A DNA stretch of 64,000 nucleotides, taken from positions 1,408,001-1,472,000 of the forward strand of contig CBDCXV010000010.1 of assembly GCA_965223905.1 (NCBI GenBank), in the 5' to 3' direction. The notes beneath the pieces were generated by a model that ran no database searches, was not told the origin of the DNA, and saw nothing but the letters and a program-made list of their open reading frames with translations. This DNA is from Candidatus Latescibacterota bacterium (lineage in GTDB: Bacteria > Latescibacterota > UBA2968 > UBA8231). Shown here one piece after another: positions 51,643 through 60,255 of this stretch (position 1 is its first letter; each line of letters opens with the position of its first letter). The translations under genes were made by a program, and so were the position numbers.

Positions 51643-51903
51643 GCCCCGCCTCAGCCGCAGTTCGAGTTCGCCGCCTGACCTCCTCCGCGATTCGCTCCCT
51701 GCGCCGTGAGTCGTACGGAGGAGTGCGCCCTCAAACACCAGATTGACCCCCGAAACGCGCCGAAATCCTTTCCAACGGTGATCGGAGCATGCCCGAACGA
51801 TTCGGTGCGACGACAAGCGATTCATCAGGAACCCTGCCCAACCCTTGACAACAGTTTCAGCGAATTGATAGTACCGATATCAGTGCCCTTATTTTTCCTA
51901 TAC
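51643..51903 (+). mobile_element. Non-autonomous IS91/ISCR-like end (oriIS-like) element
   Basis: 261 bp near-identical to 57126-57385; begins with the last transposase codons (PQPQFEFAA*) and ends CCCTTATTTTTCCTATAC. Confidence 0.85.
51845..51874 (+). promoter_or_regulatory. Putative outward-facing sigma70 promoter in the element end (same motif at 57328-57357)
   Basis: TTGACA-N18-TAGTAC with TG two bases before the -10, ~30 bp from the element end. Confidence 0.5.
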
Positions 51904-52487
51904 ATTGGATGGACGATTCGTGCGTCGCTTATTGTCGCGATGACCGCTCCTTCCGGCCACACGCTGGCGCTTCCACGAATCAAAGGGGGTCACCGGATCG
52001 ATCTCGACGACGAGACTCTCGGACGCTGGTGCGGGTGGATCGCACTATCGCCCGCGCTCGACAGGCGGCGTATCGTACCTCCAAGGTGGGATTGCTGATC
52101 GACCGGCTCGACGTGCCGCATGCGCACGTCGACGTGGGGCTCAATCGTCGGATGCACGACATGGACCTCGCGTGCGTCGGTCCGTACCACAGTGACGAGG
52201 TGCTGTCTGCCGAAGCCGCGCATCCGCGCGGCTTCGGCATGGCCTTACAGGACCTACCTACCTTTCTGGACGTCGCCTTCAATTGCACTTTGTCAATATA
52301 TTTTGTTCGGGAGCGGAATATGTCCTGCTGTGGAAATCAGTATTCATCAATCTCACGTTGGTGGAGTACTGTCCGCGGACGATGGCGAGGCAGCGGCCGC
52401 TGGGTCGCGGGCGAATTGAACGGCGTCAATCGCTCTTAGGAACGCGCGTAGCCGCTTGGATGGGAATGGCGGCGGGATCTAAAGACC

Positions 52488-53444
52488 ATGATGAAGTTCA
52501 CAATGGAAGTCAGCGAAACGAACTATTCGAAACTCGATACCTATATAAAAGAGAAAGGCTATAGGGAGACTGCGGCGCGGGACATTCATCTGATTTTCGC
52601 CATCTCCCAATCTGAGGAGGCAGAATCAGCGTACGAAGCCCTCTTAGGTAGAGAGCTTCCGATTGTCGAGAGCTTCCACGATCTTGACGCCTCGATTGAG
52701 CTCGTGAAATTTGGTTTCTATAAGCAAGCGTTCGCCTCACTCCGCATGGGGCTTGACAACGGACTCCTTTCTGCATACTGGAATGCAGTGGGCTACGACC
52801 GGCCCGAATTCACACGATGGATCTATTCGAAAGAGAAGACACCGCGGAAAGATTTGAAGTTCTGGAGATCGATACGTCGACTCCCGGGAGTTGAGTGTTT
52901 CTTTGAGAGCTTCTCTTGCGAGAAGAAGATCAATGACCTAAGCGAACGGCTCAATGATTATATTCATACCAGAGGATTCCGGTACTCTACGTTCGGCGAG
53001 TTCCAGCGAAAGATAAGAACACAAAACCTCTACATAGAATGTGACGAGTGGTACGATCTGTTTGTGGCTACAACCCGGATCATCGTGACTCTGCAGTTGC
53101 TTGTCAAACCGAAGTTGACTGTCGTTGTACCTGATGAATTCCTTCTGAGAAAGTTTGGATCCTATGATCATATTCCTTTCTGTGGAGTGCTACTAGGAGA
53201 CTATTCGAATCGGCTAAAGTCGTGTGTCGGGGAGTGTGAGTACGACGCGATATCGACAATAGCAAGTACGAGAAACGAAGTCAAAGACGTGTGGAATTAC
53301 CTCGATGGTTGTCCTGACTTGACAGATGGCGAGATTCGAGAGCTCAATCGTGAATTCTGGAAGTCGACTGGACTGGACGATGATACTGTCGAAATCAGGG
53401 TCGACGAGATACTTCGCTCGATTCGTGGGTTTGAAACACAGTAA
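52488..53444 (+). CDS. Hypothetical protein (possible HEPN-like helical fold)
   Basis: 318 aa, low GC; GFYKQAFASLRMGLD...LSERLNDYIH pattern. Confidence 0.65.
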   Translation: MMKFTMEVSETNYSKLDTYIKEKGYRETAARDIHLIFAISQSEEAESAYEALLGRELPIVESFHDLDASIELVKFGFYKQAFASLRMGLDNGLLSAYWNAVGYDRPEFTRWIYSKEKTPRKDLKFWRSIRRLPGVECFFESFSCEKKINDLSERLNDYIHTRGFRYSTFGEFQRKIRTQNLYIECDEWYDLFVATTRIIVTLQLLVKPKLTVVVPDEFLLRKFGSYDHIPFCGVLLGDYSNRLKSCVGECEYDAISTIASTRNEVKDVWNYLDGCPDLTDGEIRELNREFWKSTGLDDDTVEIRVDEILRSIRGFETQ

Positions 53445-53617
53445 GACTTAACCTCTAAGTCTAAGCTCTATAATGCGAAGAATGCGTCCGCTTCCAGAGG
53501 TGGTTGCTTGTCATGATCCAATCCGGGCCGAGAGCCCGAGTAATCCAGCGAAGTCTCACTTGATGTGAGAGGTTCTTGCTGCCGCCAAGGTGATTGGATC
53601 TCTGGCCTCGCAAGATT

Positions 53618-58507: not shown

Positions 58508-58843
58508 TCACCATTCCTGATTCTTGACGACCACCTTGATGGCGCCGTCGAGTTTCTCGCGGGCGTGCCTGAAGGCCTCCGGCAGTTGGCTCAACGGAAA
58601 CGTGTGCGTGTGTACGGGCGATGCATCGAATTTCTGCTGCGCCATGAGCGCGGCGGCGCGCCGCACGGCACTTTGACCTTCGGCGCGAATTCCGAAAACG
58701 TAAATGTTGTTCATGACGATCTGGCTGATGTCCACGGTCACCGGCCGGTGCGAGAACGCGGCCAGGCAGATACGGGCACCGCGGTTGACCATGGCAATGA
58801 CGTCATCCAGCGCACTGGGTACTCTGGAGCATTCCAGGGCGAC
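58508..58843 (-). pseudogene. Zn-dependent alcohol dehydrogenase, C-terminal fragment
   Basis: VHTHTFPLSQLPEAFRHAREKLDGAIKVVV; 5' part replaced at the permease-end repeat. Confidence 0.75.
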
Positions 58844-58965
58844 GCGTGGTGATTGGGGGCCTGCTGCTGTCCACGCTGTTCACCCTGTTTCTGGTGCCTA
58901 CGTTCCTCAGCCTGGCGATGGATCTGAGAGCCTGGATCGGCCGCGTCGGGAGGGCAGTGTAAGGG
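58844..58965 (+). repeat. Diverged orphan copy of the RND permease 3' end
   Basis: Encodes VVIGGLLLSTLFTLFLVPTFLSLAMDLRAWIGRVGRAV*; mostly synonymous differences from 51518-51636. Confidence 0.9.
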
Positions 58966-59337
58966 TGGACGGCCCCTCCCCCTCCGGTGTTACGTCGGTT
59001 TGGGGTTGGGTGCAGAAAGTACGTTCGTGGGAGCTGCTGCGGTCAGCGCCCCGGCACTTCGGAGATGCAGATCGAGTATCAGGCGGACCGATACGTACAG
59101 CCCCAGCAGCTAACGGAACGCTGACCACGGACGGCCGGAGCGCCCGGGTGGGCAGCACAGCGCCGGTCTCTTACTGGATACGCCCAGGGGGTCCCCGGCG
59201 CCGGTCTGTGGCTTCGCGGCAACGAATGGGAGGGAATCTTCACACTCCCGTGCGCACCAACCCAGTCATAGAGCAAGTCCCCGGAATACAACCGACGCGA
59301 GCACGGGTGGTCCGCCCATTGCTGTGTGGCCGGCACC

Positions 59338-60255
59338 ATGCCGGTCACACCTGTCCGCCCACCCGAGTACCGCCGCCGCGAACCGGAAAAAGAGCCCCTC
59401 TACCAGATCCTCGCCGGGCATCTGGAAGCCTTTCTCCAGCACACCCGAACGTCCGAGCACCAACTGCCGCTCCACGTCGAGAAGGAGATGCGCGCCTACC
59501 TCGAATGCAGCATTCAGGCCTACGGGTTCGTGCGCGCCCGGTGTGAGGACTGCGGGGCGGGCTGGGCCGTTGCGTTTTCCTGCAAGAATCGGGGGTTCTG
59601 TCCCTCGTGCAGCGCTCAAAACGCCGTGGTCGGATGGGACCCGCCATCTCCTGCTGTCTCCGATGGAACTGCTGGAGAAGCTGGCGGCTCTGGTTCCCCC
59701 GCCCCGGTTTCATCTCCTGCGCTACCACGGGGTCCTGGCGCCCCGGGCCCTGGCCCGCGACCTCATCGTGCCGGCCGAGCCGGCGGCGGCGGACGGCTCG
59801 GCGAGCGCTGCGTCCTGCGGCCATCGGCTGCGGTGGGCGACCCTGCTGGCGCGGGTGTTTTCCTCCGACCTCAGCGAATGCGCGGCCTGTGGCGGGCGCC
59901 TGAGAATCATCGCCGCCCTGACCGATCCGGCCTCGATCCGATGCCATTTGACCGGCATCGGTTTGTCGGCCCGGCCCCCGGCCTTGGCCCCTGCCCGGAC
60001 CCCGCCGCAGCCGCCGTTCGAGTTCGCCGCCTGCCCTGCCTTCTCGACCCGTCGCCGTCGCCGGGCGTACGGCGGGGGGTGCCCTCAACGGTCCCTCAGG
60101 CCCCGGATTGATCCGGATACGGGCCTACAGGCAACCAAACTACTGCGAGCTCGGTCGAAGGACTGGCAACGATCCTCAGGGGAGTTGCCAGACCCTTGCG
60201 GTACGCTCAGCGCCTTGACCGAGAGTCCAAAAAAGGTGCCTCATTTTACCTATAC
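59338..60255 (+). mobile_element. IS91-family element with central deletion of the transposase
   Basis: N-terminal Zn domain (RAYLEC...CEDC...FSCKNRGFCPSC) fused out of frame at ~59612 to LKTPWSDGTRH...RYHGVLAP; no HUH region; ends CCTCATTTTACCTATAC. Confidence 0.85.

Follow-up and report, generated by a model that had tools for sequence, protein, structure and literature searches.

The 64,000-nucleotide (nt) window analyzed here, part of contig C10 in the genome of a Candidatus Latescibacterota bacterium (GCA_965223905.1, hereafter G000), contains six fragments of a single element of the IS91/ISCR family of insertion sequences (IS). Positions refer to this window unless preceded by a contig label (C1, C10 and C11 belong to the same genome). 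The fragments were placed by BLAST against a full-length genomic copy, C1:927559-929325, which supplies the reference positions used throughout, and two types of 3' tail are distinguished, A (about 225 nt; copy 3 and the majority) and B (about 260 nt; copies 1, 2 and three others):

15225..15311, minus strand: ISCR-like fragment covering reference positions 695-780, with 81% identity to the full-length copy (blastn)
28523..28578, minus strand: B-type 3' tail piece of 56 nt, lacking the terminal heptamer; 86% identical to positions 445-499 of copy 2, E 7e-10
32642..32866, minus strand: C-terminal piece of the transposase (32709-32866) with a degenerate B-type tail ending TTTTTCTTAATAC
51643..51903, plus strand: copy 1, last ~12 transposase codons and B-type 3' tail, end TTATTTTTCCTATAC; 96% identical to copy 2
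56752..57385, plus strand: copy 2, C-terminal ~135 codons with one in-frame TGA, stop at 57159-57161, B-type tail, CCTATAC end
59224..60255, plus strand: copy 3, left-end region, A-type tail, end TTTTACCTATAC

Five of these pieces had been reported by a first-pass annotation made from the sequence alone, and each was recovered where it had been placed or a few bases away; the sixth (15225-15311) is added here, and copy 3 now starts 114 nt earlier, taking in the left-end region. Copy 3 keeps the first 94 transposase codons (59338-59619, the zinc-binding domain), lacks reference positions 394-1129 through an internal deletion and continues with a C-terminal part (59621-60030) that has lost its stop. 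Pfam matched Zn_Tnp_IS91 at 59326-60111 (E 1.8e-14) and the C-terminus of Y2_Tnp at 56790-57161 and 59324-60583, and a repeat finder paired 51636-51895 with 57119-57378 (94%), 56755-56910 with 59628-59783 (97%) and 56913-57130 with 59774-59991 (89%), the last two intervals being also related, in inverted orientation, to 32709-32811 (82-83%). As the annotation had claimed, the window holds no complete transposase, and its count of four retained ends was correct: the heptamer CCTATAC is exact at 51903 and 57385 (both ...TTATTTTTCCTATAC) and at 60255 (...CATTTTACCTATAC), giving ends of the type TTTT(T/A)CCTATAC, the end at 32642 is degenerate (reverse complement ...TTATTTTTCTTAATAC), and the piece at 28523 has none. 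We consider it likely that an ISCR-type insertion sequence (IS91 family, HUH rolling-circle) once spread through this lineage and decayed afterward, leaving these pieces as its relics.

The proposed assignment to the IS91/ISCR family, with a conserved oriIS-type end, is borne out by Pfam, NCBIfam, an alignment with ISVsa3 and 19 exact ends across the genome. The sole whole-looking transposase open reading frame (ORF) of the genome, C11:524224-525666 (480 amino acids, aa), contains Zn_Tnp_IS91 (E 8e-21) and Y2_Tnp (E 5e-29) domains, and supplies the intact HUH transposase that the annotation had suggested looking for in the lineage. Its NCBIfam matches are strong yet fall short of the narrow curated cut-offs, with 364 bits against ISCR_clade_Ia (E 1e-108; cut-off 925), a mark of its distance in sequence from ISCR2, and 108 bits against the IS91 equivalog (cut-off 125). 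Plasmid copies carrying an IS91-family or ISVsa3 annotation share 41-42% identity with it over 92-93% of its length (41% over 93% for ISVsa3/ISCR2), and the end-to-end ISVsa3 alignment conserves the zinc cysteines, the HUH motif (NLNPHLHVLLLDGVY; NPHLHVL) and LERLCRYVARPA. The RY motif, LERLCRY, matches the single-Y ISCR type, whereas IS91 itself has two tyrosines. Besides a HUH rolling-circle transposase with an N-terminal zinc-binding domain, the element has two unlike ends: an oriIS 3' of the transposase gene ending in CCTATAC (225-260 nt past the stop codon at the 19 exact ends) and a left end unrelated to it in sequence. The remaining long copies are broken, that on C1 by a frameshift ahead of the C-terminal CxxC and two on C10 by frameshifts or a stop, and a second C11 copy, cut short on either side, continues into part of an amidohydrolase. 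This latter locus, C11:552060-554569, deserves a separate remark. The ISCR fragment is cut at reference 1402 and joined in frame to an amidohydrolase C-terminus, and is followed by a 92% copy of the DNA upstream of the intact C11 copy (C11:522245-525873), an arrangement resembling a circular permutation.

Relatives of the transposase are plentiful in public data, with 5545 proteins at E <= 1e-30 among 8000 candidates scored. Contigs of 69 kb up to 5.9 Mb carry full-length relatives at 85-89% identity, and relatives at 55-65% come from records labeled Ardenticatenia, Latescibacteria and Burkholderiales. Y2_Tnp was matched in 13 of the 31 genomes searched, including both same-genus genomes, and one genome of the same family has four open Y2_Tnp frames of 486-534 aa. 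The element family is new at the sequence level and ordinary in behavior; it does not constitute a new kind of system.

Across the 7.9-Mb genome (11 contigs), 43 DNA matches to copy 2 and 25 Y2_Tnp matches merged into 52 fragments, which are 72-97% alike and nearly all broken. The exact heptamer is present in 19/52 and the 3' end is reached, or approached to within about 25 nt, in 29/52; the left end is kept in just five. The 5' breakpoints span reference positions 1 to 1694 and are nearly all different. A breakpoint is shared together with its upstream flank in two pairs only, both of them duplicated pairs, and other coincidences are few (position 1132 occurs twice, for example, and four breakpoints cluster at the left end of the element). 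An apparent hotspot at reference 1130-1132 (three junctions) was set aside, since chance alone should yield about four coincident pairs in a set of 52. No set of uniform-length copies with both boundaries in common, as in miniature inverted-repeat transposable elements, was found among the 52, and the discrete non-autonomous "end module" postulated by the first-pass annotation is contradicted by breakpoints that almost all differ. Orientation is uniform inside each array, as listed below, where some copies are duplicates of one another and the independent events are fewer than the counts:

C10 343-386 kb: 10/10 minus
C10 527-561 kb: 5/5 minus
C10 1368-1441 kb: 5/5 minus
C10 1459-1647 kb: 13/13 plus
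C1: 6/6 plus
C11: 5/5 plus

The two tail types also differ at their termini. B-type tails provide two of the three exact ends in the window and 4/19 genome-wide, and the two nucleotides past the heptamer are subfamily-specific, TT in 14/15 A-type ends and AT or CT in 4/4 B-type ends; ISCR2 has GT at this position, as against the TT or AT found here. IS91 is not known to generate target-site duplications and uses a specific target tetranucleotide, which could not be confirmed here. A short hairpin predicted for copies 2 and 3, 16 nt from the terminus, folds no better than shuffled sequences (z -0.1 to -0.6).

Clues on the direction of mobilization come from duplicated units. In 4/4 of these, the DNA that travels with an ISCR fragment is found on the fragment's upstream (terIS) side. 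The tandem unit C10:371064-372420 is repeated at 374212-375569 (99.9%); the match extends 768 nt upstream beyond the 5' breakpoint of the fragment and, at the other side, no more than 2 nt past CCTATAC, where the flanks diverge. Similarly, C10:1604638-1608868 equals C10:358613-354383 (99.9%); the two agree in their trailing ISCR fragment, in its breakpoint (542) and in the flank upstream of it, and differ in the DNA ahead. The remaining evidence involves an efflux pump gene of the window:

48493..51633, plus strand: AcrB-family efflux pump, intact and conserved, donor of the captured 3' end (Pfam ACR_tran, E 3e-208)
58844..59223, plus strand: captured DNA on the terIS side of copy 3, consisting of the last 112 nt of the pump gene and about 270 nt of its native downstream spacer

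The pump 3' end at 51518-51629 recurs at 58844-58955 (112 nt, 93%), a repeat that the first-pass annotation had overlooked. A second unit, C10:1645699-1647169, joins about 490 nt of the pump 3' end and about 100 nt of the same spacer to an ISCR fragment starting at reference position 856, and at C10:1652049 there is a third piece of the pump, about 100 nt long. Two related genomes, G001 and the single-contig sister species G002, were available for comparison. In G002 the spacer and ISCR left end seen here likewise come directly after an intact pump, in this order, which offers a plausible source for the captured arrangement.

The anatomy of the four units suggests that DNA adjacent to terIS has been co-mobilized, probably by read-through of terIS. 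Such behavior fits the rolling-circle model, in which replication of ISCR and IS91 elements is proposed to run from oriIS to terIS, as described in passages of PMC6218425 and PMC13393415; the same passages give IS91, IS801 and IS1294 a constant oriIS boundary, a variable far boundary and co-mobilization of DNA beyond terIS, all of which resemble what we observe. We therefore favor a scenario in which, following the established IS91/ISCR model, transposition would proceed from oriIS (...CCTATAC, about 225-260 nt past the stop) back through the element to terIS. Repeated insertion beside resident copies, together with homologous recombination between co-oriented copies, would then build same-direction arrays of cargo, truncated ISCR and oriIS, and the same two processes would also have shuffled modules within the genome and between related species. 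Because the oriIS end is constant, the 5' side variable and the upstream DNA co-copied, the gene that follows an end is not captured by it; in most cases it should belong to the next unit as cargo, or simply be target DNA. The constant oriIS, the one-sided loss of terIS and the capture of the pump 3' end on the terIS side at three places thus provide a natural anatomy that agrees with the rolling-circle model.

The opposite polarity had been put forward in the first-pass annotation, namely that short oriIS end modules, mobilized in trans, head and capture the genes downstream and express them from an outward promoter, in the manner of an integron without an integrase. Several observations lend themselves to this reading. 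In the window, 4/4 ends are followed by a co-oriented accessory ORF, at 47, 61, about 450-513 and 6-584 nt, and the intact transposase could act in trans. In ISCR1, according to a passage in PMC6218425, the region on the oriIS side is variable and lies downstream of two functional outward promoters (POUT). A promoter-like motif is also present here:

51845..51872, plus strand: sigma-70-like outward promoter match in a B-type tail, TTGACA-16-GATAGT (10/12), about 30 nt ahead of the end; the same at 57328-57355

This call is a consensus match only (five matches in 9.4 kb vs 1.9 +/- 1.2 in shuffles), and a possible outward promoter is confined to the rarer B-type tail, which may add one as in ISCR1; no sigma-70-like match was found in the majority A-type tail. 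The pattern of co-oriented downstream genes holds in the window but not in the whole genome, where the first downstream gene is co-oriented at 16/29 ends (p=0.36), or at 12/19 when only exact ends are considered (p=0.18), and the upstream gene at 11/29; these counts are based on a crude in-house gene caller, a weakness for our own interpretation as well. Contigs from public runs were also inspected (4 of 24 listed runs compared with the window, all as contigs; two were metatranscriptomes, 7% of words). The RNA contigs cover mainly the IS1182 and ISCR transposase parts, and none bridges an end into the downstream gene, although contigs alone make this a weak argument. Combined with the heterogeneous 5' breakpoints, which leave no module, and with duplicated units that hold upstream rather than downstream DNA and stop at the heptamer, contrary to the claim that ends "head" their cargo, these results make the end-module reading very unlikely. 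Gene capture by ISCR elements in general, on the other hand, agrees with the literature, a passage of PMC6218425 already presenting ISCR as a gene-capture platform.

Defense genes had also been expected to be enriched behind the ends. PADLOC was run on 25 of the 29 downstream genes (four fell outside the fetched loci) and on 104 control genes from eight arbitrary 20-kb regions. At E <= 1e-5 the expectation is not borne out (5/25 vs 11/104, p=0.17); only at the strict cut-off of E <= 1e-40 does an excess appear (3/25, namely an HEC-01A ATPase, TmtA and a GmrSD-type gene, vs 1/104, p=0.023). Among 156 island proteins scanned with Pfam, the cargo comprises metabolic and other genes (GFO/IDH/MocA oxidoreductases, enolase-superfamily enzymes, aldo-keto reductases, PhyH dioxygenases, DUF6785/6784, ABC transporter parts), transposases (IS3, IS110, ISL3, IS66, IS4/5, IS1182 and UPF0236 types) and defense-type genes (GmrSD, SIR2, AbiEi/AbiEii, an AAA_21 ATPase).

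A number of observations weigh against our interpretation of the fragments as products of rolling-circle transposition. The copy with the intact transposase on C11 lacks the last 14 nt of its own oriIS and shares just 83-89% DNA identity with the copies of the C10 arrays. The two pump 3'-end copies in the window are just 93% alike, and the order of events is consequently uncertain. Some 5' truncations look like later in situ deletions rather than transposition products: G000 is missing 330 nt of ISCR and 10 nt of flank that G002 keeps at the same site, several fragments have internal deletions, and in 4/11 cases the breakpoint lies 0-33 nt past the stop of a co-oriented upstream gene (pump 9 nt, which is where copy 1 begins, TmtA 0 nt, GmrSD 22 nt), as if deletion had proceeded as far as selection would tolerate. 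Finally, no transposition event was directly observed. Joints in the public contigs, which appear to skip or to go back, link homologous positions of different ISCR copies; they are indistinguishable from other mosaic copies in the community, and so bear on neither circles nor deletions.

Another possibility is that the relics took no part in assembling the region. Old ISCR insertions might simply have decayed in a permissive region, with co-orientation and shared units resulting from segmental duplication and ordinary recombination. The broken state and the 72-97% similarity of the copies are in line with such passive decay, as are the large segments at 99.9-100% identity common to two C10 islands, the presence of other IS families and a phage-type integrase in the same islands, and a variable region at the same place in G001 with few ISCR matches. 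Yet the duplications end exactly at the oriIS heptamer (plus 2 nt), the pump 3' end has been captured at three places in different lengths (112, about 490 and about 100 nt), and random decay would favor neither end, as opposed to the 29 3' ends and five left ends counted. We regard passive decay without any role in assembly as unlikely.

A further explanation concerns orientation only. IS200/IS605-type HUH elements insert strand-specifically at the replication fork, and a similar habit here would produce a replichore-wide polarity with a switch inside the window. On C10, indeed, 20/20 fragments up to 1,440,866 are on the minus strand and 14/14 from 1,459,643 to 1,934,219 on the plus strand, the switch falling between window positions 32866 and 51643. 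However, C10 shows no matching switch in GC skew, the 19 Y2_Tnp matches of G002 alternate in six orientation blocks instead of two, and the clustered fragments represent few independent events. On the GC skew and the six blocks we reject replication-linked orientation as the main cause, and we take it to be very improbable.

Returning to the scenario of rolling-circle insertion followed by recombination, comparison with the related genomes informs on how modules have moved. G002 shares the pump operon at 97% identity and G001 at 91%; in both, the match ends at the end of the pump. Behind it, the DNA of G002 and G001 corresponds to pieces of the G000 island at 1601-1647 kb, which in G002 keep their orientation and stand in a different order. 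The identity baseline was taken from one control region (L090, C1:200-220 kb), which is 92% identical to G002 and 86-87% to G001; a second control (L092) had no orthologous match in G002. A module lying between two ISCR fragments, C10:1609337-1615522, is 99.6-100% identical to G002 (L068:10616-16277) in 250-nt windows over 5.7 kb, barring one 520-nt indel, and the ISCR fragments that flank it are 94-97% identical. For a second module, the aldo-keto reductase region, the figure is 99.4-99.5%. Identities of 99.6-100% against a baseline of 92% point to recent exchange between species, in which the co-oriented ISCR relics likely acted as recombination anchors for module reshuffling. In G000 itself, C10:354383-358613 and 375566-377654 are 99.4-100% identical to C10:1602634-1608868, inverted and in islands about 1.25 Mb apart, which reflects either a recent segmental duplication or an assembly effect. 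The ISCR arrays gather ordinary accessory and anti-phage genes, and modules between relics have been exchanged between species.

A bolder extension, which we advance tentatively and rate as rather unlikely, is that units of gene, truncated ISCR and oriIS are still working cassettes: the C11 transposase would nick oriIS in trans and carry off the upstream DNA, the relics would supply portable stretches of homology through which species could swap cassettes, and an outward promoter would come with the B-type tails. If true, ISCR debris would amount to an active, integrase-free shuffling platform for defense (Tiamat, GmrSD, NYN) and metabolic genes, and would offer natural evidence for ISCR transposition, which, according to a passage in PMC6218425, had never been shown experimentally as of 2018.

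Known ISCR arrays provide the closest parallel. In a 25-kb stretch of the E. coli plasmid NZ_CP047466.1 we found seven ISCR2 copies, all on the plus strand, with 5' starts at 1, 18, 21, 21, 614, 614 and 813 and unrelated genes in between; 7/7 end in TTCCTATAC (...TTATTCTTCCTATAC). The layout is the same as in the window, so the pattern singled out by the first-pass annotation is the standard ISCR pattern. ISCR2 (ISVsa3) arrays resemble the present ones in the 41% full-length transposase alignment with common HUH and RY motifs, in the end motif TT(C/A)CCTATAC and in their co-oriented, variously 5'-truncated copies that keep oriIS and have unrelated genes between them. They differ in setting, since ISCR2 arrays sit on resistance plasmids or integrative and conjugative elements and carry antibiotic-resistance genes, whereas about 50 fragments lie here in the chromosome of an uncultured environmental lineage, with metabolic, defense and IS genes as cargo. 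To our knowledge, ISCR elements are known almost only as antibiotic-resistance carriers in clinical Proteobacteria, and about 50 fragments of a distant relative (41%) in the chromosome of an uncultured bacterium add context for research on mobile elements. What recalls ISCR1 is that the genes on the oriIS side vary and that the oriIS tail contains a motif resembling an outward promoter; POUT promoters occur in complex class 1 integrons, while the motif here is a consensus match confined to the B-type tail and without integron context. Integrons are similar by analogy only: there, too, unrelated genes follow one another in order and in one direction, each with a conserved element prone to recombination 3' of it. 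They differ in having a tyrosine-recombinase integrase with attI, Pc and attC-bounded cassettes, and in that the units here are irregular in size and include several genes or gene fragments. No integrase was detected beside the window arrays in protein-domain scans, no attC search having been made, and the phage-type integrase in the C10:1601-1647 kb island is unassociated with the repeats. A tRNA gene suspected beside C10:1601617 was not found by ARAGORN in five sources.

The genes that surround the plus-strand fragments of the window are as follows:

51909..53444, plus strand: orphan ORFs 3' of copy 1
53715..55127, plus strand: IS1182-family DDE transposase, unrelated to the ISCR pieces (NCBIfam transpos_IS1182, E 1.8e-34)
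57447..58103, plus strand: NYN-domain gene, 61 nt past the end of copy 2 (Pfam NYN, E 1.8e-9)
60706..64000, continuing to C10:1474282, plus strand: Tiamat TmtA-like (sacsin-type) ATPase, 1837 aa (PADLOC TmtA, E 3e-140; NCBIfam P_loop_sacsin)

The orphan ORFs have no Pfam, NCBIfam or PADLOC match. The GC content drops to 46-49% at 52500-53500, against 64-70% around, and the 318-aa ORF in this low-GC stretch has no match in the same three databases and was not found in five relatives. The TmtA-like gene sits between two ISCR ends, its stop codon abutting the next fragment (C10:1474283-1474661). The earlier label of "sacsin-like ATPase" was right as to type, the protein matching P_loop_sacsin, and is amended to a homolog of Tiamat TmtA; that of a "HEPN trio" survives for one of four ORFs, with a borderline HEPN match (E 1.4e-4), the other ORFs having none. 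Five related genomes (92-96% complete) yielded no match to the NYN gene, the TmtA-like protein or the low-GC orphan, so that the synteny check proposed with the annotation points to accessory genes rather than conserved synteny.

Some minor observations were made along the way. On the minus strand of the window, 25083-27638 encodes an 851-aa protein with McrB-like AAA_5 and EVE domains and a PD-T4-1-like N-terminus, probably a modification-dependent restriction component; the neighboring YgjP-like metallopeptidase is broken up over two ORFs (27660-28282). A 51-nt direct repeat (86%) occurs at 5398-5448 and 32863-32913, the second adjoining the ISCR fragment that ends at 32866, and may be a small repeat element. 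Lastly, a multicopy UPF0236-type transposase element (481 aa) is present with 99.6-100% identity at C10:1480366-1481944 and at least 12 other places; no other IS seen in these islands has been active as recently.

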